From IMG/VR virus record IMGVR_UViG_3300015615_000881: 64,000 bases of DNA; one strand, given 5' to 3'. A program made the position numbers and the translations under genes. A model generated the notes under the pieces. That model saw only the letters and a program-made list of their open reading frames with translations. It did no database searches and was not told the DNA's origin. Source of the stretch: a virus. Taxonomy: Duplodnaviria; Heunggongvirae; Uroviricota; Caudoviricetes. This document shows positions 3,497 to 38,850 of this stretch, piece after piece (position 1 is the first letter of the stretch; every line of letters begins with the position of its first letter).

Positions 3497-4800
3497 TCCT
3501 TGATGCAGTCCGGGAGTTCGACGCGGCCGGTTCTCAATTGAGCATAGATTTGGTATGCCGCCTCTTTGTAGTTCACAGGGAAGCGGACCCGTGTATCCGT
3601 CGAATTTACAATCGCAATACCACTCACGGGCAGGCGAACCACCCTGACCGCAGCGGTCTGGAGGCGGTCGAGTATTTCAGCACAGGCCGTGTGGTAGGGA
3701 GCCGCGACCGGACAACCGGCCGCGGCCGCCTCTGTGATAGGCAAACCCCACCCCTCACCGAGCGTCGTCGTCAGGAAAAGATCGGCAGCGTTGTACAACT
3801 TGTTCAACTTCTCTTCACTCCACAGCGGCTGGTTCCCCATCCAATGCCCACCCGATTTCTCGTCGGTGCAGCGCCAGTCTTCGGTATATTTGAGACCCAT
3901 CTGACGGGCGAGAATCTCCAGATGATGCGAGTCGTCATGCACGTTCCAGGCGGTCATGTGCATCAACAATCTGACATTCCGAACGCCCGGAATCGGATTT
4001 GCGGCGTGGTGAAGCTTCAGTTCCTTGAACGTTTGGAACGTGCTGATGATCCCCTTGCGGGGTTGGTTGGCGCTGACGTTTACAATCAGAACATCATCCG
4101 ACTTCAGCCACCCGGGCAGTAACTCTTCCACCAACTTGAATCTTGGGTCCGGCAGCTTCCGGTACACACCGGTGTCAACGCCATGTGGCAGGACGCGGAT
4201 CTTCGATTCCCAGTCTGTGCCAGGATCCTGAATCGCCGAGACGGCCTGTTCCCTTCCCCATTCGCAGTAGGCAACCGGAACATCGACGTTCCGGATTATG
4301 TCAGCCCAGCCTGGTTCCAGCGGCGCATCGACCGGGAAGTAGAGGAAGCTGCGCGCCCCCAGTTTAGTGCATGCCTCACTCAATACCGCCGGGAATTTGC
4401 AGTTCGAAAGCCCGAACGTGTCCTGCATCAGCCAGACGTGTGTGTAGGGACGGCCAGCCCGATGCGCCATTTCCAACCGGCTGATGAATCCCTGCAGCTT
4501 GGGCTGCGTCGCCCAGTCCGCAAATCCGGCGGGATAGATTCGATAGGGAAGTTCGTGCGGCCAGCCGTTGAAGTTGATGCCCCAGACATCGATCTCACCG
4601 AAGGAGGCATGCCAGCGCTTGAGAAGGTTCTGGGCTACCCGGGCGAACCCGGTGTTCACCGTTGGCGAATCACATAAGCAGAGCAGCCGCATAAAAACAG
4701 GGAGGTCTGTGAGTTGGTCATCCGGATCGCATTGCGATCTCAGTACACACTTCACGCCTCCCGTGATGGTCAGCCTGAACGAACCGGCAGGCGTTGTCAA
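3439..4800 (-). CDS. GT4-family glycosyltransferase
   Basis: The C-terminal GT-B signature GEGWGLPITEAAAAGCPV (the E-x7-E motif of GT1/GT4 enzymes) is present. The true start is probably the internal Met MRLLCLC near position 4692, because the ORF-track start is a TTG codon. Confidence 0.7.
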   Translation of the reverse strand: MTTPAGSFRLTITGGVKCVLRSQCDPDDQLTDLPVFMRLLCLCDSPTVNTGFARVAQNLLKRWHASFGEIDVWGINFNGWPHELPYRIYPAGFADWATQPKLQGFISRLEMAHRAGRPYTHVWLMQDTFGLSNCKFPAVLSEACTKLGARSFLYFPVDAPLEPGWADIIRNVDVPVAYCEWGREQAVSAIQDPGTDWESKIRVLPHGVDTGVYRKLPDPRFKLVEELLPGWLKSDDVLIVNVSANQPRKGIISTFQTFKELKLHHAANPIPGVRNVRLLMHMTAWNVHDDSHHLEILARQMGLKYTEDWRCTDEKSGGHWMGNQPLWSEEKLNKLYNAADLFLTTTLGEGWGLPITEAAAAGCPVAAPYHTACAEILDRLQTAAVRVVRLPVSGIAIVNSTDTRVRFPVNYKEAAYQIYAQLRTGRVELPDCIKEWLSWDRIADEWMKLFKGE

Positions 4801-7212: not shown

Positions 7213-10200
7213 TCAGAACGGCACACCAGTGAAACCGTTCGCCTGGGCCGGCTTGGAGGAACCACGCGACGAGGACGCCCGGTCCAGCGCATCGGCAAAA
7301 GCGTGCGCGCTGGCGGCGGCTCGGTCCATGCCAGCGGCGGCGGCCTCACCGGCGGGGCCGAGCGTGCTGATGAACTCCTGACCGGCGGCCATCAAACCAT
7401 CCGTCATCGCCGCAAGAATGCCGCCCTTGTTTTCCGAGAATCTCTGGAAGGTCTCGAGATCCATTCCAAATGGGGCCAGGGCATTCTGCTCCCGGCGGTT
7501 CTGGCGCATTGCCTGGCCGCCGGTCAGCATTTCCATGTCGGCGCGGGCAGCGGGGGACAATCCAAAGAAGGAACCCGCGTTCATGCCGTTGGACATCGAG
7601 GAGACCGCCATCTTCCGCAGCAGATCGGAGGGACTGGACGTCAACAGGCTGAGTTGGAATTCCTTCTGCGAGTCGAGCGCGATCTGGCGCTCCTCGTTTT
7701 TCAGTTGCAAGAGACGCTCCTGGATTGCCTGCTCCCCCTTCAGGCCCTCGAGCTCGAGCATGTATTGCCGGACCCGGTCGTTGTCGGTCAGCGTGCGCTT
7801 CTGGGAAATCGCCAGCAGTTGTTCGGCGATCGCCTTCTGCCGGGACAGCAGACGCTCTGCTTCATTGTAACCCACGCCGGCGACGGTCAGTTCAGAGAAC
7901 CGGGCAGCAATGGAACGCCGGTCGGCAAGTCGCGCGGCGCCCTGAACCTCCGGCCGCGACAAGGCGGAATACTCCATCCCGTATTGCTCATTGAACCGGG
8001 ATGGGTCGGAGTACTGGGACAGGGCGGACAGGTAGCCGCTTCGCCGGAACAGTGCGTTCAAGGCGCCACCGGTTCCAGGCAGGGCGCCCTGCAGGGTTTG
8101 CAGCCCGCCGGCCATACCAAGCGACAACTGTTCACGACCGAGTTGATTGAATTCCGCAGCGCGACCGGCGCGCATTCGGTCATTGGCAGCGCCAAAATTC
8201 AGCCCCAACCGTGATCCGAACCGTACGAGGCGGCTGCTCATGTCAAACTCGCCGGTTTCGGTGATGGTGGAATCGACCAGATCCCGGAACATCCGGTTAC
8301 CGTTTAGGTCGATCCGGCTGAGGACGGCGAGGGCGGCTTGCATGGTCGGAGGGAGCCGGTCACCGAAGCTGACCTTTCCGAATGCGTTCATCATCCTGAA
8401 CCCACCCGAGAAAGCGCCAATGCCGGTCGAGATCCGGTTGCCGATTCCGCCGGAACCGGCCTGGTTGACGAACCGGATCCATTCCGTGGTCAGTCCGGTC
8501 CACTGACTCTTGATGGATCCGATGATCTTGGTGTTCTCGACCACCGCCGAATCCTGATTCTTCAAGTTGTCGGCCGACTGATCGAGCACCTTCCCATAGT
8601 TCTCCAACGCCGTGGCAATTCGATTCGCCTGGTTGCGGCCGAACAACCCAAGGAGCTCGCCGCGGCCGCGGGACTCGAGCGACAGGTATTTGTTCGAGAG
8701 TTCACCCAGGAGTTCGGCGCCCGGCTTGAGGGTGTTCTCGCCGCTGAGGACCTCAAACCCGAACCGGGACCGGAGCGATTCCTGAATCACCGGGTTTTGC
8801 AGCCCGGACAGGATGGCCTTGGTGCTGTTACCGAACTGAGCGCCGGCTTGGCCGCTGACGCCGGAGGGAATTCCGATCAGAGGAATCAACACATCCAGTG
8901 GAATCCCCGCGTCCTTGGCGATGGTGGCGGTCCGGGTGAGGCCTTCGAAGATGTCCTTGTTGGTGACGCGAAACTTGTTGCTCGTGTTGTTGATCTGACC
9001 GAGCACCTTGACCATGTCCTCGCCGCGGAGGTTGAAGTTCAGCATCAAGGCCGAGAGATGCTCGGTCGCCTTACCCGCATCGATCTCCGCCACATTGGCC
9101 GCCATCAACGATGCACGCACACCGTCCTGAACTTGCTTTCGGTTCAGGCCGAGCCGGGACCAGGCAATCGCCGAGTCCATCGCCTCTTCCGTGCTTCGAC
9201 CATTGGCGGCGGCGAGCGCCAGGACGTCGTCGGTCAACGCCTTCGCGGTACCGCCAGCGCCGCGGAACACTTGGTCCAGGCGGCGGGTCTGTTGCTCGAG
9301 GTTGACGAAGGCGCGAGCCGAACCTCCAGCAACACCTGTCAAGGCGCCAATCGTGCCGACAGCCGCCCCCCACCCTCCCACCGTCAACACGTTGCGTGCG
9401 AATCCAGGCAGCGTGAAGCCGGTGAGGCCTCGAGTCACCAGCCTGCCCTGCCCGCCCATGAGCGTGCCCAATATGCCGCCACCACCACCGGCGCCGGGCG
9501 GTATGGGCGGGGGAATGGACATCGGCGGCGGACTGAACCTGTCCCACACCTTTTGAACGGCAAGATTCTGACGCGAGGAACGATTGAAGTACCTCTGGTG
9601 CTCCCGGGCGGCCCGCTCCTGCTCGACGAATGCCTTCTCCGATTCCTTCATCGCGCGCTCGCGCGCCTTTTCGAAGGCGATTTCAGATGTGCGCGGGCCC
9701 ACCTGCGGACTGCCCTGGCGGAGTCGCTCCGACTGAGCCAGGAATCTGTCGGCCTGGGCCGAATACAACTGGGTGATACCTTCCGGGCCGGGAATGGCAC
9801 GCACATTTCCCGCGTGACGCCGCAAGGCAGCGGCCAAGGCAGGCGCGTCACCGGTGCGGATTCCCGCTCTCGCGATCCTGAAGGCCTCTTCCTCGAGCGC
9901 ACGCAACCGGCGCGCTTCGGCACCAGCACCACCCGATCCGCCCCCTCCGCTGCCGCTGCCAGTTCTCCGGCTGCCGCCGCCGCCGCCACCGGAACCGACT
10001 GCCGGAACCTGACCAACCACGGTCGCGGTGATCTGGGAGGCGGGAATGACCAGCGCAATCTGGCCGGAAACCGCTGCGGTATGGGCGCCAACCGGGTCGT
10101 TGGCCATCGTCGGCGTCCGGCGGAAGATGCTGCGGTAGTTTCGCGCCTGCCGGGATTCGAACGATTCCAGGAACCGGGCGGCCGACTCACGGCTGGCGAA

Positions 10201-10617
10201 TTCCGATCCCGCGCTGCTGGAGAAGATCAGCCGTTGTCTGAGTGCCGCGATCTCGTTGGCCGTGCGGGCATTGTCCGACCGCTTGCCCTGCGCCACGGCG
10301 GTATTCAGGCGCGAGATGGCGGTGCGGATCTCTTTCTCAGCGGCCAGCCCAGCTTCGCGAATGATGGTCGGATCCAACCCGAACATCTTCGCAACGCTGG
10401 TCGTGGATAGGTCCTTGCTGGAAATCCCCGACCGAAATACCTCAGCAGACCGGCCGCGGGACAGGCCGCTGAACATCGCATTGATGTCGCCGATCTCCTT
10501 CTTGATCAGACGCAACGACGCCAGGGTTTTGTCCAACCCAGTGACGTCGCCAGCCTTGCCAACGACGTCCAGCCTTATTGTTTCGCGCAGATCTTCCACA
10601 GCTATTGCAGGCCCCAT
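7213..10617 (-). CDS. tail tape measure protein
   Basis: It is 1134 aa with Gly-rich runs (GSGGGGGGSRRTGSGSGGGGSGGAG) and a TP901-type tape measure core (ATEHLSALMLNFNLRGEDMVKVLGQ...). It sits directly downstream of a G/GT frameshift chaperone pair. Confidence 0.7.
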   Translation of the reverse strand: MGPAIAVEDLRETIRLDVVGKAGDVTGLDKTLASLRLIKKEIGDINAMFSGLSRGRSAEVFRSGISSKDLSTTSVAKMFGLDPTIIREAGLAAEKEIRTAISRLNTAVAQGKRSDNARTANEIAALRQRLIFSSSAGSEFASRESAARFLESFESRQARNYRSIFRRTPTMANDPVGAHTAAVSGQIALVIPASQITATVVGQVPAVGSGGGGGGSRRTGSGSGGGGSGGAGAEARRLRALEEEAFRIARAGIRTGDAPALAAALRRHAGNVRAIPGPEGITQLYSAQADRFLAQSERLRQGSPQVGPRTSEIAFEKARERAMKESEKAFVEQERAAREHQRYFNRSSRQNLAVQKVWDRFSPPPMSIPPPIPPGAGGGGGILGTLMGGQGRLVTRGLTGFTLPGFARNVLTVGGWGAAVGTIGALTGVAGGSARAFVNLEQQTRRLDQVFRGAGGTAKALTDDVLALAAANGRSTEEAMDSAIAWSRLGLNRKQVQDGVRASLMAANVAEIDAGKATEHLSALMLNFNLRGEDMVKVLGQINNTSNKFRVTNKDIFEGLTRTATIAKDAGIPLDVLIPLIGIPSGVSGQAGAQFGNSTKAILSGLQNPVIQESLRSRFGFEVLSGENTLKPGAELLGELSNKYLSLESRGRGELLGLFGRNQANRIATALENYGKVLDQSADNLKNQDSAVVENTKIIGSIKSQWTGLTTEWIRFVNQAGSGGIGNRISTGIGAFSGGFRMMNAFGKVSFGDRLPPTMQAALAVLSRIDLNGNRMFRDLVDSTITETGEFDMSSRLVRFGSRLGLNFGAANDRMRAGRAAEFNQLGREQLSLGMAGGLQTLQGALPGTGGALNALFRRSGYLSALSQYSDPSRFNEQYGMEYSALSRPEVQGAARLADRRSIAARFSELTVAGVGYNEAERLLSRQKAIAEQLLAISQKRTLTDNDRVRQYMLELEGLKGEQAIQERLLQLKNEERQIALDSQKEFQLSLLTSSPSDLLRKMAVSSMSNGMNAGSFFGLSPAARADMEMLTGGQAMRQNRREQNALAPFGMDLETFQRFSENKGGILAAMTDGLMAAGQEFISTLGPAGEAAAAGMDRAAASAHAFADALDRASSSRGSSKPAQANGFTGVPF

Positions 10618-11359
10618 TGAGCCTTCTGCCGCTCAAACGGATTATCCGGCACCTTCTTGTTGTTGGACTCCCCGAGCATTTCCGACTGATAACTTTCACG
10701 CAGCGACTTCTCGAGTTCGTGCGCAATCAAACGGGCCCGGCGATCGGGATGCTCAGCCCTCCATTGACTGAGTGTATAGCCGAAAGCCCGGGCAGTTTCA
10801 AGCTCGATGAATTCAAAGTGGGGCGGAGACAGCTTCTTCCACCCCTTCGACGGCGGTTTTTCGACGGGCTTCCACCCCCTCAACTCTGGGGCGAGGCGGG
10901 TGTTAAGGTAAAATTTACACGGTCCTCGACATTGACCTCCGCAGCGGTGATCTCGGAGAAAATGTGGCCGAGGATCTCTTCGGTAAAATGCGATTGAACG
11001 GCGGCGGTGATCTGCTCCTGGCTGGCCATGGACAAACCCGGGTGCTTGGAGGCAAACCAGGGGCACGCAATATAAAGCGTCAGCGATCGAGCCGACAGGC
11101 TGGCCTTGGCAATTGCTTCCTGATACTGGGGGTCGCTCAGATCCGGCACCTGTTCACCCGGTCTTGGCCCGGCAATCATCTTGGGCCGGACCCTCTGGAC
11201 AATGGCGGTGATCTCCGCGTCTTCCTTGGGAGTCAGCTTCCGGCAGGGCACGGAAACTTCCCGTCCACGGTGAATGAATTTTACGGTGATGTTTTCACCA
11301 CAAATCCTGTCGATGTCATCGAGGGTCGCGGCGGGATAGGATTGCTTTGGTTCTTCCAT
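10602..11359 (-). CDS. tail assembly chaperone GT fusion produced by -1 programmed frameshift
   Basis: The -1 frame opens exactly at the slippery site. It reads ...EDRVKFYLNTRLAPELRGWKPVEKPPSKGW... and continues to position 10602, overlapping the tape measure start. This is the classic siphovirus G/GT arrangement. Confidence 0.5.
10880..11359 (-). CDS. tail assembly chaperone (gpG-like)
   Basis: A 159-aa ORF immediately upstream of the tape measure gene. It ends ...EDRVNFTLTPASPQS and contains an A_AAT_TTT slippery heptamer 10 codons before its stop. Confidence 0.55.
   Translation of the reverse strand: MEEPKQSYPAATLDDIDRICGENITVKFIHRGREVSVPCRKLTPKEDAEITAIVQRVRPKMIAGPRPGEQVPDLSDPQYQEAIAKASLSARSLTLYIACPWFASKHPGLSMASQEQITAAVQSHFTEEILGHIFSEITAAEVNVEDRVNFTLTPASPQS
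10910..10916 (-). promoter_or_regulatory. -1 ribosomal frameshift slippery heptamer A_AAT_TTT
   Basis: On the minus strand the sequence GTA AAT TTT ACC has the canonical X_XXY_YYZ form. The -1 frame continues as KFYLN..., matching ORF 10602-11066. Confidence 0.5.
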
Positions 11360-12861: not shown

Positions 12862-13265
12862 GTCACCTTCTCGAGCAGGACCGTGCGATAGAGCCGTTGA
12901 TTGCGCTGCACCACATCCCAGGCTTTGGCCAGTTTCTGGCTGACCTTTTTCTGCTCGTATTGCTGGCCGTCGATGGTGAATCGAAGCGCTTCCTTGCCGT
13001 CCAGCGGGGCGTCGTAGGCGAAGTCAACAATCAGATCCCCCACTTCAATTTCCGCGTACTGACGAACCGCGCTGACGGAACCGGCGGAGTGAACGAAAGC
13101 CTTGATCGTCAGAGTTTGATCGGTGGCAACCGCGCCAACGTGTTGCTGGGTTACCGGATCAAGGGTGCCGCCGACGTAGCTCTTCCATGTCAGGATGACG
13201 GAGGTCCCGTCCTTCGACAGGTTCAGTTTTACCCGCCGCTTGATCGATGGGAGATTCGACTGCAT
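12858..13265 (-). CDS. hypothetical head-tail connector-like protein
   Basis: The ORF-track N-terminus (MCRGFDSRP...) is a translated tRNA and was trimmed. The probable start is MQSNLPSIK at 13265. Confidence 0.35.
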   Translation of the reverse strand: MQSNLPSIKRRVKLNLSKDGTSVILTWKSYVGGTLDPVTQQHVGAVATDQTLTIKAFVHSAGSVSAVRQYAEIEVGDLIVDFAYDAPLDGKEALRFTIDGQQYEQKKVSQKLAKAWDVVQRNQRLYRTVLLEKVT

Positions 13266-13756
13266 TCGGCCTCGTACAGGTTGGCGAAACGGCGGGCCCG
13301 GTCGAGAATGGGCGCAGGGGCGGGAATCGAACCCGCGACACACAGTTTATGAGGCTGCGGAACTACCACTGTTCTACCCTGCATCAGATACTTGGGAGCA
13401 TTCCACAGAACGTAGAGTTCCCGGGCGCACGGCGGCCGGCCGTGCCGCCTGCTGAATCCAGCGATGCGCTCCACCAGAATCGCCCGCGCCTCCGGCCATT
13501 CCGGCCGGCGCGACCGCGTCAACCTGGGGTGGATCTGGAACCGGCCACGTTCGCCGGCGGCACCGATGAGACGCGGGTTGTCGCCGGTCTCGATTTGAGC
13601 CAGGGCGTGACGCAAGGCGGACTCGAAAGGCAGGCGGCCACGGTGGGAGCAGACAACCCGAGGGTGACCCAAAAACATTCCCTCGCTACAAGGATGAGCC
13701 GCCAGTTGCGGCGCGAAGCCGCAGAGCAAAAGCATGAAAACGAGTGCCCAACGCAT
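13229..13756 (-). CDS. secreted SLT-domain lytic transglycosylase
   Basis: Signal peptide MRWALVFMLLLCGFAPQLAAHP. Family-1 SLT active-site motif QIETGDNPRLIGAAGERGRFQIHP (compare ESxFNPxAxSxxGAxGLMQI). The last ~50 codons run through the tRNA, so the true C-terminus is uncertain. Confidence 0.5.
   Translation of the reverse strand: MRWALVFMLLLCGFAPQLAAHPCSEGMFLGHPRVVCSHRGRLPFESALRHALAQIETGDNPRLIGAAGERGRFQIHPRLTRSRRPEWPEARAILVERIAGFSRRHGRPPCARELYVLWNAPKYLMQGRTVVVPQPHKLCVAGSIPAPAPILDRARRFANLYEAECSRISHRSSGG
13309..13383 (-). tRNA. tRNA with CAT anticodon (Met, fMet or Ile2-lysidine type)
   Basis: A 75-nt cloverleaf on the minus strand. The acceptor stem is TGCAGGG/CCCTGCG with a U1-G72 wobble. 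The D-arm is GAAC-AGTGGTA-GTTC. The anticodon loop is CTCATAA (CAT). The T-arm is GCGGG-TTCGATT-CCCGC. The discriminator is C and the CCA is encoded. The anticodon stem has one C-A mismatch. Confidence 0.65.
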
Positions 13757-13801: not shown

Positions 13802-14578
13802 TCACAGCGCGAGGGGCTCCTCGAACCCCACCGCCGTGAGACCCTCCACGCCGAGGGTCGCCTTCAGAGTCCCGACCGAGAATTCAAACCGGGCGGGCGA
13901 GGCCTCCGGGGTTGCCTCGATCAGGGCGGGTGTGTAGATCCTCCCGCCGGTCATAACGCAGCCCAGGCGGAGGCTGCCACGCCAGAACTCCAGGCGGGGC
14001 GTAAACAGGCGGTCCACCTCGAGAAACTCATCAGCCGTCACCCCCTGGGATCGGATCGTGGCACAGGGCGCGCCGTGGATGGAGATGTTGATTCCGCTCG
14101 GAACCGGGAGAATTGCGCCACGGTTGTCCAGTGAAGCCACCGCGGTGAACACCCCGGAGACGTAGTTGTAGAGCCTGACGTCCTCGATCCCGTCAACCCA
14201 TCGAACCGTCAGAGGCAGGTCCGGCGCGAGACCCGTCACCAGGTTGGGATCAGCCGTCTCCAGAACGATGGCGGCATTCGTCGCCGCATCTGCCTCGACG
14301 CCGGCGAAAGCGCGCACCAGCCAGCGGATCTGGTGGCCGACCGGCACGGTGCGGTTGATCTGGATGGACTGCCGGATCTCGCCGGTGCCCGGTGAAATCT
14401 GAAACTCTTCACCCGTCAGGACCCCGTTGACCTCCAGCGCAATGAAAACGAATCCCGCCACGGGCCGGGTCAGCACGATCGAGGCCGACGTGATCGAGCG
14501 CGGCGCTGTCCAGTGGTAGTGACCCATGAAGTATTCACCCGTGACGAGCGCGGCCGTATGCTTGAAGATGGATTTCAC
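13802..14578 (-). CDS. structural protein carrying the repeated EVNGVLTG beta-domain (one copy)
   Basis: A probable GTG start at 14578 overlaps the upstream TGA (GTGA). It contains GEYFMGHYHW...IALEVNGVLTGEEFQISPG...GHQIRWLV. Confidence 0.4.
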   Translation of the reverse strand: MKSIFKHTAALVTGEYFMGHYHWTAPRSITSASIVLTRPVAGFVFIALEVNGVLTGEEFQISPGTGEIRQSIQINRTVPVGHQIRWLVRAFAGVEADAATNAAIVLETADPNLVTGLAPDLPLTVRWVDGIEDVRLYNYVSGVFTAVASLDNRGAILPVPSGINISIHGAPCATIRSQGVTADEFLEVDRLFTPRLEFWRGSLRLGCVMTGGRIYTPALIEATPEASPARFEFSVGTLKATLGVEGLTAVGFEEPLAL

Positions 14579-15768
14579 GCCAGCCTCACCTTCATGTTGA
14601 CGCTGACCTCGGTCGGGCAGTTCAAAGGCGAAGCCGGTCCACTGACGGATTTCCACCGGACCTGGTCACCCACATTCAGCGAGCGATTCAGGTTGTCGAG
14701 TGGAACCCGGGACTGGCCGGCGGGAATGGTGACGTCCAGGCTGGCGTCAGGTACCCCGTTGATCACCGGCCGCAGCACGGAGAATCCACCGACCGGGGGA
14801 TTGCAGTTCACCACGACACTGATGATCTTCGACGACTTGCTGGCATTGTATTCCCCGAGGCAAAAGGCCCCGGTCGTCAAAGCGCCCACGCTGGTAAACA
14901 GGATGTCCGCATCCATGTCCCCGTAGAGCGCGCCAATCACCCCCGTCCCCGTCGGGCGGATCCGCATGATGGTGCTGGCGATCCAGGCCGCGTCCGTGAT
15001 CGAGGCCGGTGCCGACGTGCATTTCCAGCGCACCTGGCTGTTGGCGGGAATGGTGATCCCGGGCGAAATACTGGCGGACACTTCCTGGTTGAGCGTGCCC
15101 ACCGGAATCTGGATCGTGGTGGACGTCAGGACCCCGTTGACTTCGAGCGTCAGGGTGCACGGGCTGGTCTGGGGAGCGTAGGAGATGACCTTGACGGATT
15201 CCAGCGCCACCTCGTCGGCCCACAGGTAGTGACCCTGAAAGTAATCGCCCAGAGCGATCGGGCCATCGTGAAAAAACGGGACGTTCTGCTCGGCGCTCGC
15301 GGCAACGATTGGGGAATAGATCCCGGTGCCCGACCGCTGGGTGTAGTACTGCGCTCGAAACGACTGGCCGGCGCCGTATTCCATGATCCCGTTGCTGTTG
15401 AGAGTCCAATTGCGCGCCGTGACACCGTAGTAGGTGCGTTTGTGCCAGCGATTCTTCTGCTCGTCGTTCCAGACGATCTCGAAAACGAAACGCTGGTTCG
15501 GCCGCGGCTGGTAGTCCTCCATGGCCGGAAGTGGCAGAACCCACACCCTGGCGATGTCAATCCCGTGCCGCTCATCGACATGGTAGGCGGTCTTGTATTC
15601 GTCGCCGGTTCCGGCCATCAAAACTTCTTCGAAGTCGAACCCGATCTGCATCTGCTCAATGCAGGCGCCAATCCAGACCGGTTCGGCGATGATCGCGGCG
15701 CCGGTCGGGTCCGACGGATACAGGGAAACCGTCGCTTCGTGCAGGACGAATAGCTGGTTCTGTCCCAT
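14575..15768 (-). CDS. structural protein with two copies of the EVNGVLTG beta-domain
   Basis: Copy 1 is GHYLWADE...LEVNGVLTSTTIQIPVG...SQVRWKCTSAP. Copy 2 is GEYNASKS...PVINGVPDASLDVTIPAG...DQVRWKSVSGP. Confidence 0.45.
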   Translation of the reverse strand: MGQNQLFVLHEATVSLYPSDPTGAAIIAEPVWIGACIEQMQIGFDFEEVLMAGTGDEYKTAYHVDERHGIDIARVWVLPLPAMEDYQPRPNQRFVFEIVWNDEQKNRWHKRTYYGVTARNWTLNSNGIMEYGAGQSFRAQYYTQRSGTGIYSPIVAASAEQNVPFFHDGPIALGDYFQGHYLWADEVALESVKVISYAPQTSPCTLTLEVNGVLTSTTIQIPVGTLNQEVSASISPGITIPANSQVRWKCTSAPASITDAAWIASTIMRIRPTGTGVIGALYGDMDADILFTSVGALTTGAFCLGEYNASKSSKIISVVVNCNPPVGGFSVLRPVINGVPDASLDVTIPAGQSRVPLDNLNRSLNVGDQVRWKSVSGPASPLNCPTEVSVNMKVRLA

Positions 15769-15771
15769 GGG

Positions 15772-16680
15772 TTACCGGGCGATGACGGTGAGATTGAGAC
15801 TGACTTCACTGATCGAGTTTTCCGGGGTGACCGGGGCGGCAGTGCAACGCCAGCGGAGGCTGTCGCCCGCGGCCAGGTTCTTCTGATAGGTCGCCTCGGC
15901 GTGGACGGCGCTCGCGGCAATGGTGATGGTATCCTCGATCGCCAGGTTTCCATTGACCTCGGGCACAATCGTGACGGGGCCGGTGCCGGCGGCGCAGTTG
16001 AGCACGGCCTTGACGTACTGCACTGGCCGGGTCGCCTTGTATTCGCCGAGCAGGTAAGCCCCGGAGAGCAGTGCCCCGACGTGGGTGAACAGAATGTTTT
16101 GGTCCATGTCGCCTCCATTGGATGAACTACTGGCGCCGCCTTCGGATACCGTGAGTGTTTGCCAAGAACCGTCCACCTTGACCTCCGTCATCAGGGCCGG
16201 CAGGCACAGACCGTGCAGCCCCTCAAACCAGCCGGTGAAGTGTTGCCAGCCGCTGAACATGGCCTCTCCGTTCTCGAGGCGGTGAATCACGTCCTCCAGA
16301 TGATTCATGAAGTCGCGATAGGACCCGAAGGTCTCGCTCATCGCGCGCGTCTTGTAACCCTGGAACGAGGGGTTGGGCGCGATGAACATCACGGCGACTC
16401 TGTAAACCAGAAGAGCGAAGGCGTTGGGATCCGTCAGGTCGGGAGTGATGTTCAGGCGGTTGGGGGTCAGGGTGTAACCCTTGGCGAAGTTCATCCGCAC
16501 GGCCGTCCGCACGGCGCCTTCAATGGCGCTGTTGGCGTACAGGGGAATCTCCGGGTCGCGATCGCCGAGCACGGCGCGAATCGGTTCCTGCAGTTCAGTG
16601 ATCGGCGTCATGGCGCATTCCTTAGCTTCAACAGAAAAGGCGGACGCACTCGCATGCGTCCGCCCCCTCAATACCCGCAC
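15772..16680 (-). CDS. structural protein with a C-terminal EVNGVLTG-type beta-domain
   Basis: GEYKATRPVQYVKAVLNCAAGTGPVTIVPEVNGNLAIEDTITIAA...DSLRWRCTAAPV. It is coupled to the upstream gene. Confidence 0.4.
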   Translation of the reverse strand: MRVLRGRTHASASAFSVEAKECAMTPITELQEPIRAVLGDRDPEIPLYANSAIEGAVRTAVRMNFAKGYTLTPNRLNITPDLTDPNAFALLVYRVAVMFIAPNPSFQGYKTRAMSETFGSYRDFMNHLEDVIHRLENGEAMFSGWQHFTGWFEGLHGLCLPALMTEVKVDGSWQTLTVSEGGASSSSNGGDMDQNILFTHVGALLSGAYLLGEYKATRPVQYVKAVLNCAAGTGPVTIVPEVNGNLAIEDTITIAASAVHAEATYQKNLAAGDSLRWRCTAAPVTPENSISEVSLNLTVIAR

Positions 16681-21077: not shown

Positions 21078-21395
21078 TCAAGAAAGGTCCGCAACAATGT
21101 TGATCGTATTGTAGCCTTCCGAGGGCACCGTGAGGACCTTGCCGTCGGCAAAGGTCACCTCCCATTCCTGACGGTGCTCGCCCTCGGTATCAACAATGTC
21201 GGCAACGGCCTGGATGGAAACCTTCCCGTCGGTGGGGGTCGGCGAGATCGTAGCCGGAAGCGACAGGCGCAGGGCGCCCTTCGACATCAGGAATTTTACC
21301 GTGGTGCCGGTGAGATCCAAGGCCGCGCCGGCATAGAGCAGGGTGTCCTCAATGAGTTGTTTGGTGTCGTTCCGTTTGATGGTGATGGTGCTCAT
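21078..21395 (-). CDS. hypothetical small protein
   Basis: The Arg-rich ORF-track N-terminus was discarded. The probable start is MSTITIKRND, directly after the stop of the repeat protein. Confidence 0.3.
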   Translation of the reverse strand: MSTITIKRNDTKQLIEDTLLYAGAALDLTGTTVKFLMSKGALRLSLPATISPTPTDGKVSIQAVADIVDTEGEHRQEWEVTFADGKVLTVPSEGYNTINIVADLS

Positions 21396-22832: not shown

Positions 22833-24014
22833 TCAGAATCCCAGTATGCTTTGCGCCCGTGGCTGCAAGATGGGCGCGTTCACCATGATTTCATCAAGTG
22901 TGATGTCGTTGTGAAACGCCACCACAGGCGGGCCTGTGAACCTGGGTATCGTGCAGAGCCAGGTGATGTCACGGGAGACTGAAGTCAACAACGTCTCCGG
23001 ACTCCAGGTAGCGCCGCCATCGGTCGAACACTTGCAGTAGATGTTGACGAGAGTCAGCCAGTTCTCGCCGCCGCCACTCGCCCCGGCATAGAAAACCCAC
23101 CAGTAACCGGTGCCGGTGTCGAGACCGACGCCGCACAAGGCCTGGTCGTCCGTGCTGTTCAACACCACGTTGGCGCTCGACTCGGTGATCGCCGATTCCG
23201 TGATCGTCCAGAACCTGAGATCGGCGTTCGCGGTATCGATCGCCGACCAGGCGGCCAGCAGGATACGGTTGTTGGTTAGATCCACGGTGGCCGCGTAGTG
23301 GGGCCACGACGTCGCGGCCACCTGCTCCGTCATGGATGTGGCGATGCTCGTCTCCGCCCAGGTGTTCGCCGAATCATCGTAAATCTGCCGGCTGATTTCG
23401 TTGGCGGATATATCCCAGAATATGCCGATGATGTCCTGATTGTCGGCCGCAAAGCCCGGCACCAGAATCATCATGTCCTGCGTGGCAAGCGTCTCATTGA
23501 TCGTGCGCGCCGCGTCCCAGGCGCCGTTGGGAACGTTCGCATTCGGTAGCCGGAAAAACCCGCCCTCAGCGCCGGCGTCGATGCAGGTTCGGCAATAGAC
23601 GTTCCCACCCCGGGCGCGGGTGATCGAAAGAGAACCGCCGGCGGCAGTGCTCGTTCCGGCAAAGATGGTGGTTTGCGTCGAAAGCGCATCCGCGGATGCG
23701 GTGTTCACCGTCCGATAGAGCGTGTCGGATCCGCCGGATTCCGTATAGGCGCAGTGGATCAGATCGCCACTGATCCCGGACCAGCGGTCATACCAGATCG
23801 AGATGGCTACGATGGTGCCGGCAAAGACCACCGTGGGCGCCCCCCAGGTGAGGCCTTTATTCGTCGATTTTCGGAACGCAAGGTCGGATCCGGTATCGAC
23901 GTAGAAGAGATAGAGATCGCCGTTGTTGGCCTGGACAAGATAGGTCGTGCCGCCACCGCTGAATTGAAGGAGGCCGGCCGTCCGGGCGGCAAGGATGTCG
24001 GCACGATTGGGCAC
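22833..24014 (-). CDS. BNR/Asp-box repeat beta-propeller protein (sialidase/glycosidase-like)
   Basis: Asp-box motifs STNKGLTWGAP and STDGGATWSPE (S-x-D-x-G-x-T-W). Length 393 aa. It has no signal peptide. Confidence 0.55.
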   Translation of the reverse strand: MPNRADILAARTAGLLQFSGGGTTYLVQANNGDLYLFYVDTGSDLAFRKSTNKGLTWGAPTVVFAGTIVAISIWYDRWSGISGDLIHCAYTESGGSDTLYRTVNTASADALSTQTTIFAGTSTAAGGSLSITRARGGNVYCRTCIDAGAEGGFFRLPNANVPNGAWDAARTINETLATQDMMILVPGFAADNQDIIGIFWDISANEISRQIYDDSANTWAETSIATSMTEQVAATSWPHYAATVDLTNNRILLAAWSAIDTANADLRFWTITESAITESSANVVLNSTDDQALCGVGLDTGTGYWWVFYAGASGGGENWLTLVNIYCKCSTDGGATWSPETLLTSVSRDITWLCTIPRFTGPPVVAFHNDITLDEIMVNAPILQPRAQSILGF

Positions 24015-24015
24015 G

Positions 24016-24684
24016 TCACACGTTGAGTGTGTAGGTCACGTCGATCTTGTCGCCGTTCCCGACGGTCTTGCTCCCGTTGGAGAAATCACCCGCACTGAAC
24101 AGAATTCCGGTCGTATCGTCCTTGGTCGCGGAGCCGCCGTTGTTGATGAAGCAGCCTGCCACGGTTCCGCCCGAGGTGAACGTGAACTGTTGCACCGGAG
24201 CGGCGGAACTTCCGCCGGAGGCGGCATTGAAGGTGATGGACGGACGGTTGCCGGTATAGACCGGCGCGTTCGCCAGCCCCACCTCACTCCAACCGGAGTG
24301 CGAGGCCTGGGTGTCGCCGACGACGGCACTGCCCGTCCCCTTCAATCCCATGCGCACCGTCTGCGTGTAGGACGAGCCCTTCAGATACTTGTCGAGGAAA
24401 TCGTTCTTGCCGACGGTCGTGACCAGGTTGTCGATGTGGTCGCGCCACTTCTCCTTGCCATCGGGCCCGTAACAAACGGCTTCGAATCGGCCTTTCAGCC
24501 GGAGGGTGTCACCGATCAATCCGCCGCGAGTGACTACCGCGGCCTGGCTGTCCACAACCGAAAGTTTATCGTTCATTTTTGTTCTCCGTATGAATTTGAC
24601 TCTCATTTGAGCGGCTGGTTTTCGACCAGCAGCTCGAGATGGGCGATGTACTCCAGCGCTGCCTTCACCAGATCCGGGGCACAC
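24016..24684 (-). CDS. hypothetical protein (probable start at internal MNDKLSVVD, ~24576)
   Basis: An ORF adjacent to the BNR gene. Its C-terminal half is Gly/Ser/Thr-rich. Confidence 0.35.
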   Translation of the reverse strand: MCPGSGEGSAGVHRPSRAAGRKPAAQMRVKFIRRTKMNDKLSVVDSQAAVVTRGGLIGDTLRLKGRFEAVCYGPDGKEKWRDHIDNLVTTVGKNDFLDKYLKGSSYTQTVRMGLKGTGSAVVGDTQASHSGWSEVGLANAPVYTGNRPSITFNAASGGSSAAPVQQFTFTSGGTVAGCFINNGGSATKDDTTGILFSAGDFSNGSKTVGNGDKIDVTYTLNV

Positions 24685-24848
24685 TCTCGCGCCTTCGCGT
24701 AATCCGGGTGCGCCAGCAACCGACGACCGTAATCCAGGTGAATCTCACCAGCCACGATCGGCGGTCGATCCAACGGCCGGGGCGGAGGCGGAGTGCTGCT
24801 ACACCCCGTCAGGAGGAGGAAGGCGACGAGCGCGATCGATTTTTTCAT
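24603..24848 (-). CDS. small proline-rich outer-membrane lipoprotein, o-spanin (Rz1-like) candidate
   Basis: Lipoprotein signal MKKSIALVAFLLLTGC (lipobox LLTGC) followed by CSSTPPPPRPLDRPP. It is about 81 aa and lies immediately downstream of a TM plus coiled-coil gene. Confidence 0.4.
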   Translation of the reverse strand: MKKSIALVAFLLLTGCSSTPPPPRPLDRPPIVAGEIHLDYGRRLLAHPDYAKARECAPDLVKAALEYIAHLELLVENQPLK

Positions 24849-24980
24849 TGTACCTCTCCACCAGATTCTTTTTGGCCTCCGCCTGCTTCGCCGCATCCGA
24901 CCTGTCCCGACTGGCCCTGCGAAATCGAAGAGCCTCCGTCAGCGACTCAAACAGTTTCGCGATCGCCGCGCCGATGCCAC

Positions 24981-25229
24981 TCACTCGTATTTCTTTCGCG
25001 CCAAGGCCAGCAGGACACTCAAGGCCGCCTCGTTGGCTGCGACCTCCGCGCGTAGTTCCGCGAGATCCGCGCGGACCGCCGCCGCCTCAATCCGACTCGC
25101 GCGCTGGTCCTCGTTGTAGGACGACTGCGTGACGAACAGATGGTAAACCGCCACCAGTGTGGCAGTTGACACGCCACCAATCGCCGCCAGCTTCTTCCTG
25201 CCTGACAATTGTGTCGGCTGGCCGGACAT
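24981..25229 (-). CDS. i-spanin (Rz-like) candidate: N-terminal TM helix plus coiled coil
   Basis: A TM segment (AAIGGVSTATLVAVYHLFV) is followed by a coiled-coil (RADLAELRAEVAANEAALSVLLALARKKYE). The adjacent 61-aa coiled-coil ORF at 24799-24984 in another frame may be its continuation. Confidence 0.35.
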   Translation of the reverse strand: MSGQPTQLSGRKKLAAIGGVSTATLVAVYHLFVTQSSYNEDQRASRIEAAAVRADLAELRAEVAANEAALSVLLALARKKYE

Positions 25230-25232
25230 GGG

Positions 25233-25595
25233 TTATTGATGGCCGGTCAGCTTGATCGAGAACACGTAGTCGAGTCCCCAGGCGAACCAGCGGAAGATGA
25301 TGTTGCCTTCGATCAAGGCGAGAATCTCGTCGTCCCGGGTCGTCGGCGTGGTCTTCACAAACCCATGGAGCCAGGTCATTCCCGGCTTGAATACCGCACG
25401 GAAGCCGACGATGACCCCGAAGATCTGCGCCACGACACCAAACTTTCCCGTGAAAATGCCGATCAACTGGGTGATCCAGGCGGTGTCCACCGGGACGGGC
25501 GGTTGGGCCGGCGATTCCTGCGCAAAGGCGGACACCAGACCGGCGAAGATCGTCACGAGCAACGTGAAGACGACGAGGCGAACGAATGTTTTCAT
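25233..25595 (-). CDS. holin-like small membrane protein (2 TM)
   Basis: From the MKTFVRLVVFTLLVTIFAGLVSAFA start there are two hydrophobic helices in about 120 aa. It is located in the lysis-like cassette. Confidence 0.3.
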   Translation of the reverse strand: MKTFVRLVVFTLLVTIFAGLVSAFAQESPAQPPVPVDTAWITQLIGIFTGKFGVVAQIFGVIVGFRAVFKPGMTWLHGFVKTTPTTRDDEILALIEGNIIFRWFAWGLDYVFSIKLTGHQ

Positions 25596-25630
25596 GGCGT
25601 GGAGGAGAGTTGGAGTTGATTTGCTCAGGC

Positions 25631-26134
25631 TCAGTGGACCGGGGGCAGGCCCGTGTCCACCAACGCGGTATTGACCGACGCGCACATCGTCCTCGCCACG
25701 AAGATGGGCCACTTCTCCGGATCCAACTCCGCGTTGAACCGATCGGCGTAGAACCCTTGATAGAGCGCGATGATCCCGTCCTTGATGGCGAGCACGTCCT
25801 GATCGAGCCCGGATTGCAGCCCGGCCGTGGCGTTGTTGAGCGAGCCGATCAGGAAGTCGGGGGAGAACTTGCCCTCCGCCTCCATCTGGCAGAACACCGA
25901 GCCAACGGCCCGGTAATAGTTCCCGAGTTTGACCCGCGTTCCAGGGCTCTGGTTCGCCAGGACGGCACGCAGGCTGACGGTGACGAGCGTCTGGGCCGCG
26001 GCCGTCACCTTCTCGGTCCGGACCGGGTCAAACACTGGGTGGCCGGTGTTGGGATCGGTGGACCGGCAACCGTTCGAGAGCAGCAGGGTGGCGCCGAGGA
26101 CGATGGATGGAATGATTCGGAATAGTTTTTTCAT
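25631..26134 (-). CDS. lipoprotein of unknown function
   Basis: Lipoprotein signal MKKLFRIIPSIVLGATLLLSNGC (lipobox LSNGC). About 167 aa. Confidence 0.4.
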   Translation of the reverse strand: MKKLFRIIPSIVLGATLLLSNGCRSTDPNTGHPVFDPVRTEKVTAAAQTLVTVSLRAVLANQSPGTRVKLGNYYRAVGSVFCQMEAEGKFSPDFLIGSLNNATAGLQSGLDQDVLAIKDGIIALYQGFYADRFNAELDPEKWPIFVARTMCASVNTALVDTGLPPVH

Positions 26135-26135
26135 G

Positions 26136-26381
26136 TTAGACTCCAATGTTTTTGCTGGCCGGCTCCTTGGATGCACGCTGCGCCTGCCACCGTCTGACTG
26201 CCCGGGCGATCCACGAGAACAGTTTGATGCCCGTCAGGATGGCTGTGAACGTCCACGCCAGGGTTTGCACGAACAGATTCCAATTGGCCAGGGACAGACC
26301 GGTGCTTGAAGCCATCGCCGCCACAACGTATCGGTATCCTGGCATTTCAATGTCCCCCAGCCGGTTGAACCAGTCGCGCAT
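26136..26381 (-). CDS. small 2-TM membrane protein (holin/antiholin-like)
   Basis: The probable start is MRDWFNRL. The ORF-track N-terminus (MTWSTESTESTE) is a translated palindromic DNA element. Confidence 0.3.
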   Translation of the reverse strand: MRDWFNRLGDIEMPGYRYVVAAMASSTGLSLANWNLFVQTLAWTFTAILTGIKLFSWIARAVRRWQAQRASKEPASKNIGV

Positions 26382-26393
26382 TGCCTCACTTTC

Positions 26394-26428: not shown

Positions 26429-26432
26429 TTTT

Positions 26433-33428: not shown

Positions 33429-35075
33429 CTACGGAATGATCTCAATTCCGTTGATGGCGACGTGATACCCCGACCCGGCGCCAAGCAGGGGTGTCAGTCG
33501 CACTTTGATGATTCCGTTGCTGTCGGCGCGCAGGACAAAACTCTGGATGTTCGCCTTGAACTTCCCGCCGGCGGCCGCGATGACGTCGTAATTGGACACG
33601 CTTTGTGTCGTCTGGCCGATCACCTCGATGTTGAACCGCTGGTCGCCGGTGTTGTTCCACAGGATCTCGGCGAAGTGGAGCCGCACCGTGTAGTCCAGGG
33701 CGCGGGCCAGACCGGGAATCGTGTAGGTCAGCGGGTAGTTGTCGTAGAACTTGCCCCGGTGCGATTGATAGACCGCCTGGGGCGCCGGACTCACCACACC
33801 GCTCACGTCGATCGCATTGGGAACCGCGCCGGTTCCCCCGACGTCATAGTAGGCGTCGGCCGCGAAGGGTGCGGCGGCGGACCCGCCGCAGTTAAGCTTG
33901 ACCGTCGGGATGCTGCTCAAGGCGGGCTGCACATTCATCTCGAGATAGACGAAGCTCGCGAAATTCTCCACCCCGCTGCCGGCCGGGACCCCGCTGGTGC
34001 ATATCCACCGTGCGTACTCACCCACCTCGATGAACGTGCTGCCGAAGGTGACAGCGTTCTGCACCTCCACACCGTGGGCGCCGGCCGGGATGTCGATGGT
34101 GTCCCCCGTCAGGACGCCGTTCACCTGGAGGGCCAGCCGTTGCGGCAGAATCCCGGGATTGGCGGTCAGGTTCGTCTTGGTGACCAGCATCCGCTGCTCC
34201 CAGCGCTTGCGGCCACCGATGTAGTCGCCCAGGGCGACGAAGTCATGCCGCGTGTACAGCACCGGCTGATTCAACTGCACGAGGCTGACGTACTGGTCGA
34301 GCTTGACCTTGTCTGCGGCCGACAGGAGTCCGTCCGTGGACGTGGTTGCCACCGGGTGCGTGTGCTCGTAAGCCGCGGCGCCGCTGGTGCCGATCTTCGT
34401 GTAGATTCCCGCACTCGTATTGAGAATCCTGGCGCCCGGCGGGTTCGGATCCATCTTCACGTCACCGGAGATCTTCTGATCCCCGTCCACGATGGTGGGT
34501 GTCAACGTGGTGGACGCCTGGACCGTGACCTTGTTGTGCAAACCAACGTGCCCGTGATTGCCGCGGGCCACCTGGTTGACTCCGGATCCGAAATCGACCT
34601 GCAACCCGTCGCCCTCAATGATCAGGCCACTGTCGCCAGAAAGTTTGACCTCGCCGGCGAGGACCTGCCCGCCCGGCCCAGCCAGCGTGAACTCAATCGA
34701 CGTGCTGGTGCCAAGCGTTACCGGATCATGCAGCCCGCTGTGGGTATGGTTCTCGCTGGCGACGCCGGAGGTGGACAGGCCGTCACTATCCGAGGTGAGT
34801 CCCCCACCTGGCTTCAATGCAACCGCGGCGGACAACTCGCCGCCAGGGTCGTCATAGTTCCAGCGAACGGTGTGACTGTCCTGGATCAGGGCGGCGACCT
34901 GATCGGCCGTGGCCTCCGCAAAATCCGTGATCTGGCTCGACGTGTGCGTGTGGCCGGCGTCAACCCCAGATGAGATGGCCGCCTGCATCTGATCCAGACG
35001 CACCAGATGATTCGGAAGAGTCGCGGGATTCTCCGACGTGAACTGGGCTCCGGTGACGTTTCCGAGTTTGGCCAT
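33429..35075 (-). CDS. tail fibre protein with N-terminal HxH collar repeats and C-terminal malectin-like carbohydrate-binding domain
   Basis: Repeats GHTHTSSQITDF, ENHTHSGLHDPV, GNHGHVGLHNKV and YEHTHPVATTST match the phage tail fibre repeat. There is a central EVNGVLTG-type beta-domain. The C-terminus YTVRLHFAEILWNNTGDQRFNIEVIGQ matches the malectin signature. Confidence 0.6.
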   Translation of the reverse strand: MAKLGNVTGAQFTSENPATLPNHLVRLDQMQAAISSGVDAGHTHTSSQITDFAEATADQVAALIQDSHTVRWNYDDPGGELSAAVALKPGGGLTSDSDGLSTSGVASENHTHSGLHDPVTLGTSTSIEFTLAGPGGQVLAGEVKLSGDSGLIIEGDGLQVDFGSGVNQVARGNHGHVGLHNKVTVQASTTLTPTIVDGDQKISGDVKMDPNPPGARILNTSAGIYTKIGTSGAAAYEHTHPVATTSTDGLLSAADKVKLDQYVSLVQLNQPVLYTRHDFVALGDYIGGRKRWEQRMLVTKTNLTANPGILPQRLALQVNGVLTGDTIDIPAGAHGVEVQNAVTFGSTFIEVGEYARWICTSGVPAGSGVENFASFVYLEMNVQPALSSIPTVKLNCGGSAAAPFAADAYYDVGGTGAVPNAIDVSGVVSPAPQAVYQSHRGKFYDNYPLTYTIPGLARALDYTVRLHFAEILWNNTGDQRFNIEVIGQTTQSVSNYDVIAAAGGKFKANIQSFVLRADSNGIIKVRLTPLLGAGSGYHVAINGIEIIP

Positions 35076-38848: not shown

Positions 38849-38850
38849 AA

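Follow-up and report, generated by a model that had tools for sequence, protein, structure and literature searches.

Background

Previous studies on siphophages showed that tail tube proteins can carry Ig-like or FN3 domains, such as the Big_2 domain of lambda gpV, those of T5 pb6, the Big_1 domain of YSD1, and the FN3 domain of SPP1 gp17.1* (Fraser et al. 2006; PMC8718954). These C-terminal domains stick out from the tube, are often dispensable, and have been proposed to make weak contacts with carbohydrates (PMC8718954). Another type of accessory domain is known from the 936 group of lactococcal phages, where CBM "bricks" occur on the neck passage structure, the MTP extension TpeX, the evolved Dit and the RBP (Hayes et al. 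2019, PMC6669499), and where those of the neck, MTP and Dit bind host cells (PMC6669499). On fibres, a TNF-like domain was described in gp24 of cyanophage Pam3 (PMC9608196).

We show herein that a window of 64,000 nucleotides (the whole stretch of DNA analysed) encodes a new, previously undescribed module, termed J, of an uncultured lineage of long-tailed phages. J is found on a probable tail tube protein, on the products of the two genes that flank it, and on a tail fibre.

Results

A repeated domain in four virion genes

An initial annotation of this DNA had described a repeated beta-domain of ~90 aa, in at least six copies, in three adjacent structural genes and in the tail fibre. The repeat in this window is real and far above chance, and its occurrence in the fibre as well as in three neighbouring virion genes is borne out. 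Pairwise BLASTP comparisons of the copies gave E-values of 1e-3 to 5e-23 at 22-36% identity, and leave-one-out HMMs, in which four copies built the model and the fifth was scored, gave 46.9-74.6 bits, while shuffled versions (500 per left-out copy) did not pass 9.5 bits; shuffled controls had been proposed by the annotation itself. Its figures needed revision: the domain has ~108 residues rather than ~90, and there are exactly five copies, in four minus-strand virion genes, five also being the sum of the annotation's own list.

15775-16098, minus strand: J of helN-J (J HMM E 2.4e-42)
14953-15285, minus strand: J copy 1 of the tube protein, residues 162-272 (J HMM i-E 5.5e-47)
14578-14907, minus strand: J copy 2 of the tube protein, residues 288-397 (J HMM i-E 2.1e-43)
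14246-14575, minus strand: N-terminal J of J-Cext (J HMM i-E 3.8e-46)
33924-34265, minus strand: J of the tail fibre, residues 271-384 (J HMM i-E 1.3e-40)

A sixth copy was not found when the six frames of the window were searched with a five-copy and a 159-sequence family HMM, the best non-J match of both having an E-value of ~0.2-1. The family consensus, GxYxxGxYxW...LxLEVxGVLTG...IPxG...VRWK..SxP, agrees with the motif first noticed, G(E/H)Y...EVNGVLTG...IxIPxG...VRW. At the DNA level, identity among the copies is confined to patches of 13-34 nt at the conserved motifs, which argues that the duplications are old.

Among 1.84 billion proteins, J forms a small metagenomic family, with 328 clusters at E<=1e-3, and these sort into four conserved architectures. 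Single copies and profiles of 5, 8, 36, 39 and 43 sequences had no match in Pfam, PHROGs or PDB sequences, and no source names the domain. The description of the family as unannotated therefore stands, the profile search of Pfam suggested at the time having matched no family. Relatives of J were likewise not found among annotated phages or in IMG/VR or GTDB genomes. A degenerate DNA pattern for LEVNGVLT retrieved 14 IMG/VR loci, none of which had a match to the J HMM; ORF listing of three of them showed chance matches within unrelated genes. A word-indexed homologue search retrieved one protein with the J profile and eight with the tube alignment.

Predicted fold of J

In a predicted model and a fold search, J shows the ten strands of a jelly roll (~110-150 residues). 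Its predicted fold class is thus a jelly-roll beta-sandwich, which supports the earlier term "beta-domain". Fold matches, for which the matched query residues were not reported, were ascribed to J by their aligned length of 100-115 residues and tight rmsd, and by the absence of any other domain of ~110 residues in the model. The closest folds were TNF ligands, C1q, BclA and cement proteins, all of which are obligate trimers; matches to CBM6/36 were almost as good. The corresponding Pfam families of TNF, C1q and BclA_C (PF00229, PF00386, PF18573) were not matched by any of the five copies, and a BclA_C match at E 0.78 in one of eight helN-J relatives is noise. A 39-sequence J profile matched no PDB chain.

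The initial annotation had guessed at an Ig-like or lectin-like domain. A lectin-like J is possible. That J is instead an Ig-like decoration of the Big_2, FN3 or I-set type would agree with Ig-like domains being the most frequent decoration of tail tube proteins, and the five-copy profile weakly matched the Ig-like S-layer domains 4uid/4uj7 (E 0.012). However, this match was gone with the 39-sequence profile, and Pfam Ig families were matched neither by the five copies, even at E<=10, nor by the four full J proteins at E<=0.1. As the predicted fold is a jelly roll and not a Greek-key Ig-type sandwich, Ig membership was rejected, and this reading appears very improbable.

A probable tail tube protein with two copies of J

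14575..15768, minus strand: tubeN-J-J (397 aa), probable major tail tube protein with two C-terminal J copies
15289..15768, minus strand: N-terminal domain with predicted tail-tube fold, residues 1-160

In a predicted model, residues 1-160 of the 397-aa protein adopt a beta-sandwich of the tube/Hcp type, and the protein is a probable major tail tube protein. This N-terminal domain is common to 45 representative clusters. The full protein matched no tail or tail-tube family in Pfam or PHROGs, and a 43-sequence profile of the tube domain matched nothing in the PDB. Modelled as a monomer, the protein had a pTM of 0.50, with J in no fixed packing against the tube domain; single-sequence AlphaFold gave an unusable model (pLDDT 38.7).

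The gene lies 4 kb upstream of the TMP gene (7213-10617, 1134 aa; PhageMin_Tail, E 3.6e-21), in the same operon-like block, and the same order from tube to TMP is present in L017-L019, the related loci that reach the TMP gene. Six genes and a tRNA separate tubeN-J-J from a chaperone-like pair, which is not the usual adjacency. By hhalign, no relationship was detected between nine neighbouring genes and the profiles of tube, Cext, helN and J, nor among these four modules themselves. PDB searches with the putative capsid protein (385 aa) and with a 281-aa protein gave no match. The J-bearing proteins of this block had been called head-proximal, which does not suit a central gene with a predicted tail-tube fold; with such a fold, its J copies would line the whole tail.

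The flanking genes helN-J and J-Cext

15772..16611, minus strand: helN-J (279 aa), predicted helical N-terminal domain (16102-16611) and C-terminal J
13802..14578, minus strand: J-Cext (258 aa), N-terminal J and a conserved C-terminal domain, Cext, of ~147 aa (13805-14245)

The start of helN-J is most likely the ATG at 16611, not 16680; an identical 279-aa product is present in a public protein collection. In each of the six related loci, the gene directly upstream of the tube gene encodes a homologue of helN, which lacks J in five cases. helN-J is possibly a neck or adaptor protein, the neck being a location that we infer.

The architecture of J-Cext is common to 38 representative clusters. 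The gene starts with a GTG at 14578, which shares nucleotides with the TGA stop of the gene upstream (GTGA) and follows an SD-like AAGGTGAGG; such a stop/start overlap is typical of translational coupling. In SPP1 gp17.1* and TpeX of the 936 group, a frameshift extends the MTP, and on this precedent a programmed -1 frameshift could fuse the 397-aa protein to the 258-aa protein, so that J-Cext would be carried by a fraction of the tube subunits. The frame of 13802-14578 is indeed -1 relative to 14575-15768, and is open for 29 codons upstream of the GTG, to 14665. Nonetheless, 14575-15768 contains no X_XXY_YYZ heptamer in frame, and a frameshift within the last 29 codons would remove the last strand of the second J copy. 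Moreover, the tube and J-Cext genes are separated by three genes in the related locus L021 and by one in L018. Given these intervening genes, the missing heptamer, and a start with an SD-like sequence and overlap of its own, a frameshift-made extension was rejected as scarcely credible.

The tail fibre

33429..35075, minus strand: tail fibre (548 aa), shaft with HTH/DKxKLD-type repeats, J and a malectin-like C-terminal domain
33537-33899, minus strand: malectin-like domain, residues 393-513 (Pfam PF11721, E 1.6e-11)

The malectin match, at 44.9 bits versus a cutoff of 23, is above the gathering score, and the fibre also has a weak match to PTR (phage tail repeat). Its shaft is common to 16 representative clusters, in several of which J is the very C-terminal domain. 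The location of J at the distal C-terminus of several fibres, and here next to a malectin domain, supports a role in binding.

Copy number and history in related loci

Across relatives, the tube protein carries 0, 1 or 2 copies of J, J on helN is present or absent, and a gene set has 2, 3 or 4 copies. One relative without J was found, L016, in which the tube domain is fused to Cext by a linker of ~7 residues. All four related loci with both J and Cext (L018-L021) resemble the window in that tube and Cext reside in different genes and a J flanks the break on either side. L017 additionally contains a stand-alone J of 124 aa of the J-Cext type.

By position, the first J of the tube protein is orthologous to the one J that most relatives carry. 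The second most resembles the J of helN-J (36-42% identity); in L017, by contrast, the second tube J is nearest to copies of the first type (41-49% identity). Because their nearest kin differ, a second tube copy arose independently, at least twice. J copies cluster with those at the equivalent position in other phages, which indicates that most of the paralogues are old, and concerted evolution of copies within a genome was not seen. Thus, of the suggestion that J was "duplicated and shuffled between proteins", duplication and movement hold, but recent shuffling does not.

Discussion

The explanation that we favour, and consider somewhat better than evenly probable, is that J is an accessory jelly-roll module that decorates the solvent-exposed surface of the particle and makes weak, multivalent contacts with host-surface glycans; exposure and glycan binding are the most likely properties that we infer for it. 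The lineage would equip several of its virion proteins with J as an accessory, the sites in the window being the C-terminus of the tube protein (two copies), the N-terminus of the Cext partner, the C-terminus of helN, and the fibre before its malectin-type domain. Tail and fibres together would then display J in hundreds of copies, and contacts with host glycans would raise the efficiency of adsorption, as has been suggested for the Ig-like, FN3 and CBM decorations of lambda gpV, T5 pb6, SPP1 gp17.1* and the MTP, NPS and Dit of the 936 group. The variable copy number, together with the twice-independent gain of a second tube copy, fits a dispensable decoration of the avidity type.

J might alternatively be a structural brace or cement that packs on tube subunits or rings and stabilises a long tail without binding the host, comparable to YSD1 domain 2, the 80alpha C-arm or capsid cement proteins. 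Tail length scales with TMP length, and the long TMP of this phage implies a long tail. The Ig domain of lambda, for its part, adds slightly to intra-ring contacts (PMC8718954). However, the same module lies beside a carbohydrate-binding domain in the fibre and at the tips of other fibres, the monomer model does not fix it against the tube domain, and neither its absence from L016, a close relative in the tube domain, nor its varying copy number is expected of an essential brace. We therefore regard a brace as improbable, though less so than an Ig-like domain or a frameshift.

A role as an adhesin alone leaves one feature unexplained, namely the presence of J on each half of a split tube protein. 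Conceivably, though still with a low probability, J is a docking module, whereby association of J domains on different polypeptides reassembles the split protein non-covalently, and J of the tube tethers J-Cext, helN-J and stand-alone J proteins in a general plug-in system for virion accessories. Under a scenario of similarly low probability, in which J would self-associate instead of, or in addition to, acting as an adhesin, an original tube-Cext chain gained J, J was duplicated, and a break between the copies divided the chain, whose halves are held together by J-J association; the J "plug" may then have brought the helical protein and stand-alone J proteins to the tail, and perhaps fibres too. 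The arrangement in the related loci (one chain in L016, a split with flanking J elsewhere, up to the three intervening genes of L021) and the stand-alone J of L017 are in favour of docking, as are the trimeric nature of the nearest folds and the location of J within trimeric fibres. Against it, the almost equally well matching CBM6/36 domains are monomeric, the number of J copies per gene set is inconsistent across relatives, and J copies of tube and Cext from the same genome are no closer to each other than to those of other genomes. Cext, being packed on the tube when fused, might also dock there unaided, and the J-less state is known from a single relative. Docking is thus less likely than decoration, but more novel: if true, phage virion accessories would have an assembly system of the cohesin/dockerin kind, and the tube protein would be a natural case of a split structural protein rejoined through an oligomerisation domain.

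On the favoured reading of J as a surface decoration, a jelly roll of the TNF/C1q/CBM-like kind can fill the role on tail tubes that is usual for Ig-like domains, and J, if it binds glycans, could serve as a compact binding scaffold. J enlarges the catalogue of accessory modules that decorate phage particles by one for which Pfam and PHROGs have no model and sequence searches detect no relative of solved structure. A J HMM would permit annotation of ~330 protein clusters from uncultured phages, and would also flag genes for tail tubes, tube partners and fibres that sequence does not otherwise reveal. Moreover, split tube genes go together with the presence of J, and this correlation offers a testable case of domain insertion and gene fission remodelling a virion protein.

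Among known systems, CBM6/CBM36 domains are among the fold matches of J but have no sequence match to it, and occur in glycoside hydrolases rather than phage virion proteins. Also near by fold are the jelly-roll knobs of the TNF/C1q/BclA type, which include human 4-1BBL, EDA and C1q, Bacillus BclA/ExsFA, and the knobs of collagen-repeat phage fibres in BFVD. There is no sequence-family match to these either, and J, unlike them, also occurs on a putative hexameric tube protein and in tandem. With the Ig-like and FN3 domains of siphophage tubes, J shares the arrangement in which a tube domain of ~160 residues at the N-terminus precedes one or several small beta-sandwiches, and the use of the same domain type on other structural proteins. 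It differs from them in being a predicted jelly roll and not a Greek-key Ig sandwich, in lacking Pfam membership, in its two tandem copies, and in having a separate partner protein that opens with the same domain.

The CBM bricks of the 936 group are likewise related beta-sandwich modules on neck, tail tube and tip or fibre proteins, added at C-termini or inserted, in combinations that vary between related phages. An auxiliary role in host binding has been proposed and partly demonstrated for the bricks; for J such a role is putative. No sequence relationship between the two is detectable, and the predicted jelly roll of J is of the TNF/C1q/CBM6 type and not a BppA-type CBM. Nor does the J system use a frameshift, as TpeX does; instead, the ancestral C-terminal domain of the tube protein is now the product of a separate gene that bears its own J.

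A repeated domain in four proteins of the window

In the part of the window that carries J, every gene is encoded on the minus strand. The repeated domain J (signature GxYxxGxYxW ... LxLEVNGVLTG ... IPxG ... VRWK..SxP, about 108 residues) occurs in four proteins.

15772-16611, minus: helN-J, a predicted helical N-terminal domain (helN) and one J at the C-terminus
14575-15768, minus: tubeN-J-J, a predicted tail-tube-fold domain (tubeN) and two J copies
13802-14578, minus: J-Cext, one J at the N-terminus and a C-terminal domain (Cext)
33429-35075, minus: fibre gene, one J before a malectin-like domain

The five segments are 22-36% identical in pairs (BLASTP, E 1e-3 to 5e-23), and leave-one-out HMMs built from four copies give the fifth 46.9-74.6 bits, against at most 9.5 bits for shuffled J (500 shuffles per copy). 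The repeated domain that the initial annotation described in three adjacent genes and the fibre is therefore real and significant against shuffled controls. Its "at least six" copies are exactly five, as no sixth was found in the whole window, in six frames, with a 5-copy HMM and a 159-sequence family HMM. At the DNA level, the copies have only short patches in common, confined to the conserved motifs, which argues that the duplications are old.

Gene boundaries were checked by public protein entries identical to the 279-, 258- and 548-aa products. The start codon of the 258-aa gene is a GTG sharing bases with the TGA of the gene before it (GTGA), and an SD-like AAGGTGAGG stands six nucleotides ahead of this GTG. 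A -1 frameshift fusing the 397-aa (tubeN-J-J) and 258-aa products was rejected: the tube gene contains no slippery heptamer, the 258-aa frame begins at a start codon of its own, and other genes lie between the two in related loci L021 and L018.

No match was obtained in Pfam for any of the five copies, even at E<=10, in PHROG through the J region of any of the four proteins, or among PDB chains by sequence with a 39-sequence J profile, and a name for any J-family protein was found in no source; the family is unannotated, as first proposed. A marginal S-layer match (E 0.012) was lost with the deeper 39-sequence profile. Searched exhaustively with HMMER, 1.84 billion cluster representatives yielded 328 proteins at E<=1e-3 (147 at E<=1e-10), the best 150 of which sort into the same four types as in the window.

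J architectures among the best 150 of 328 proteins
N-terminal domain of ~160 aa, then one J: ~35 clusters
N-terminal domain of ~160 aa, then two J: ~10 clusters
J, then a conserved Cext of ~150 aa: 38 clusters
Helical domain of ~165 aa, then J: 8 clusters
Fibre shaft, then J: 16 clusters

In fibre-type relatives, J either ends the protein or precedes a malectin-like domain. The window belongs to a 164-kb JGI metagenome contig, and the same proteins occur on a second contig of 198 kb; searches of 50,697 deposited phage genomes, IMG/VR and GTDB species genomes gave no J relatives. Three proteins of the representative library (P0083, P0119 and P0123) each carry 3-8 tandem, shorter J-like repeats (RKNGV..TI.AG..G.F.D..V..GD.I.W) that match the J profile in its central part only. 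Their sequences suggest a wider superfamily of repeat proteins beyond J, without Pfam annotation.

Gene block around J and the remainder of the window

Gene block in transcription order
385- and 281-aa proteins: first; putative, probably capsid-related
helN-J, tubeN-J-J, J-Cext (minus): consecutive, after the 281-aa gene
tRNA-Met (CAT), 13309-13383 (minus): after J-Cext, inside the structural operon
Genes of 135, 245, 174 and 80 aa: after tRNA-Met
Chaperone-like pair, 10602-11359 (minus), 159 and 93 aa: after the 80-aa gene, just upstream of the tape measure gene
Tape measure protein, 1134 aa: PhageMin_Tail, E 3.6e-21

The tRNA is overlapped by a 175-aa ORF (13229-13756), probably spurious and absent from the JGI gene calls. 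In the chaperone-like pair, the second frame extends upstream without a stop codon for 183 nt inside the first gene, with an in-frame slippery A_AAT_TTT at 10910-10916 and G_GGT_TTG further upstream; the pair is a candidate for a G/GT-type -1 frameshift. The 135-, 245- and 174-aa proteins presumably resemble head-closure, gp10-like and terminator-type connector proteins, judging by family signatures. If so, the tube-fold protein would be the sole tube candidate; hhalign, a search unable to exclude a second tube-like gene, detected none among the neighbours.

The stretch separating the fibre gene from the putative capsid genes (22833-33349, minus) is occupied by a run of large adhesin-like genes, none containing J. 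Their Pfam matches are BNR_2 (393 aa), Laminin_G_3/ConA-like (748 aa) and Calx-beta (574 aa), and the N-terminus of a 667-aa protein resembles a signal peptide. A GT4-type glycosyltransferase gene (3439-4800, minus; Glyco_trans_1_4/phrog_2170) lies in the tail module, two genes downstream of the tape measure gene. The non-structural half contains a cysteine-dioxygenase-like gene (38366-39250, minus; phrog_4786, E 2.7e-52) and a DNA methyltransferase (47748-49145, minus; phrog_116, E 2e-78). Pfam and PHROGs leave most of the 64-kb window without annotation; among three very large ORFs (59662-63918, 49626-53393 and 56369-58972, all minus; 1418, 1255 and 867 aa), an FtsK gamma domain in the first is the sole domain match.

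Predicted structure of the tube protein and J

Single-sequence prediction of the 397-aa protein gave pLDDT 38.7, and a 43-sequence alignment of tube-type relatives gave mean pLDDT 90.5 with pTM 0.50, so that the domains are confident and their mutual arrangement is not. Structure matches of this model include Haloferax virus HFTV1, Sf11 gp24, which is a tail tube protein (PMC12724387), 80alpha gp53, R4C, SPP1 gp17.1*, the GTA tube protein, Hcp and contractile injection system tubes. Foldseek concurs (TMt 0.57-0.64), and residues 1-160 are thus predicted to have the tube fold.

Another set of matches (100-115 aligned residues, 2.5-3 A rmsd) consists entirely of jelly rolls, including a nanovirus capsid protein, and BFVD yielded collagen-repeat phage fibre knobs (TMt 0.58, 19% identity). 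The fold-match outputs come without matched query residues; we infer from the length, the tight fit and the lack of any other compact ~110-residue domain in the model that these matches belong to J. The eight to nine strands predicted per copy are compatible with this assignment. The suggestion that J is Ig-like found no support, since no Ig or FN3 chain occurs in the fold-match lists and Pfam gave no match at E<=10.

Variable J content in related loci

Six related loci were retrieved and scanned with module HMMs. The gene order is kept, and the J content varies.

Module content of the window and related loci
Window and L020: helN-J; tubeN-J-J; J-Cext
L019: helN; tubeN-J; J-Cext
L021: helN; tubeN-J; three inserted genes, then J-Cext
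L018: helN; tubeN-J-J; one inserted gene, then J-Cext
L017: helN; tubeN-J-J; stand-alone 124-aa J, no Cext gene
L016: helN without J; tubeN-Cext fusion (310 aa, ~7-residue linker) without J

Identity matrices indicate positional orthology across loci for the first tube J and the J of J-Cext. The second tube J is sister to the helN J in the window and L020 (38-42% identity) and to the first tube J copies in L017 (41-49%); a second J was therefore gained at least twice on the tube. The genes inserted in L021 and L018 make the region near the tube-to-J-Cext junction and tRNA-Met look like an insertion hot spot.

L016 is the only J-less relative found, J being absent from its whole 8.7-kb contig, and its fusion gene (L016:5751-6683, Ga0137464_1000994) is key to the idea of insertion followed by fission. 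Docking between J copies on separate polypeptides is the main rival to a decoration role, though we consider it rather unlikely. It is the only model that directly explains both the presence of J at the break point on the tube protein as well as on its former C-terminal domain, Cext, and the existence of a stand-alone J, and the nearest folds of J are obligate trimers; however, J stoichiometry differs between relatives, and Cext might dock unaided. Less probable still is a purely structural brace, with which neither the J-less relative nor the J copies in fibres agree well.

In L016:4507-5340, helN is fused to an N-terminal segment matching Pfam BppU_N (E 3.6e-6) and showing homology to what is a gene of its own (105 aa) in the window (21078-21395, minus), another fusion/fission difference between relatives. 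The fusion is a hint that helN might be part of a structure on the tail or baseplate side and not of the neck.

Proposed role and comparison with known systems

On balance, we lean toward J being an exposed, multivalent adhesion or decoration module. The variable copy number with independent gains, the position at the tips of some fibres, the neighbouring malectin domain in the window fibre, and the likeness to CBMs and receptor-binding knobs all point to this role. J would project from tail and fibres, making many weak contacts together. A tail measures about 1.5 A per tape measure residue; the 1134-residue protein would thus specify a tail of about 170 nm, displaying perhaps several hundred J copies.

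The J-bearing tube protein is built like lambda gpV, T5 pb6, YSD1 and SPP1 gp17.1*. Behind their tube domain, these proteins carry small sandwich domains, which stick out from the tail, can often be dispensed with and were proposed to contact surface carbohydrates (PMC8718954). J is spread over a putative neck-side protein, the tube protein and the fibre, and its combinations differ from one relative to the next. A parallel is found in the 936-group lactococcal phages, whose CBM "bricks" include two with demonstrated binding to host cells (PMC6669499). The proposed role of J is that of Ig-like and CBM decorations, but every test applied places it outside their families; with TNF, C1q, BclA_C and CBM6/36 it has only the jelly-roll fold class in common, with no membership by sequence. 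A published description calls TNF-like domains rare in phages (PMC9608196). The one unusual feature is the splitting of the tube gene with a J on either side of the break, which would be more noteworthy if J copies do dock to each other. We regard J as a new domain family with what is probably a familiar job.
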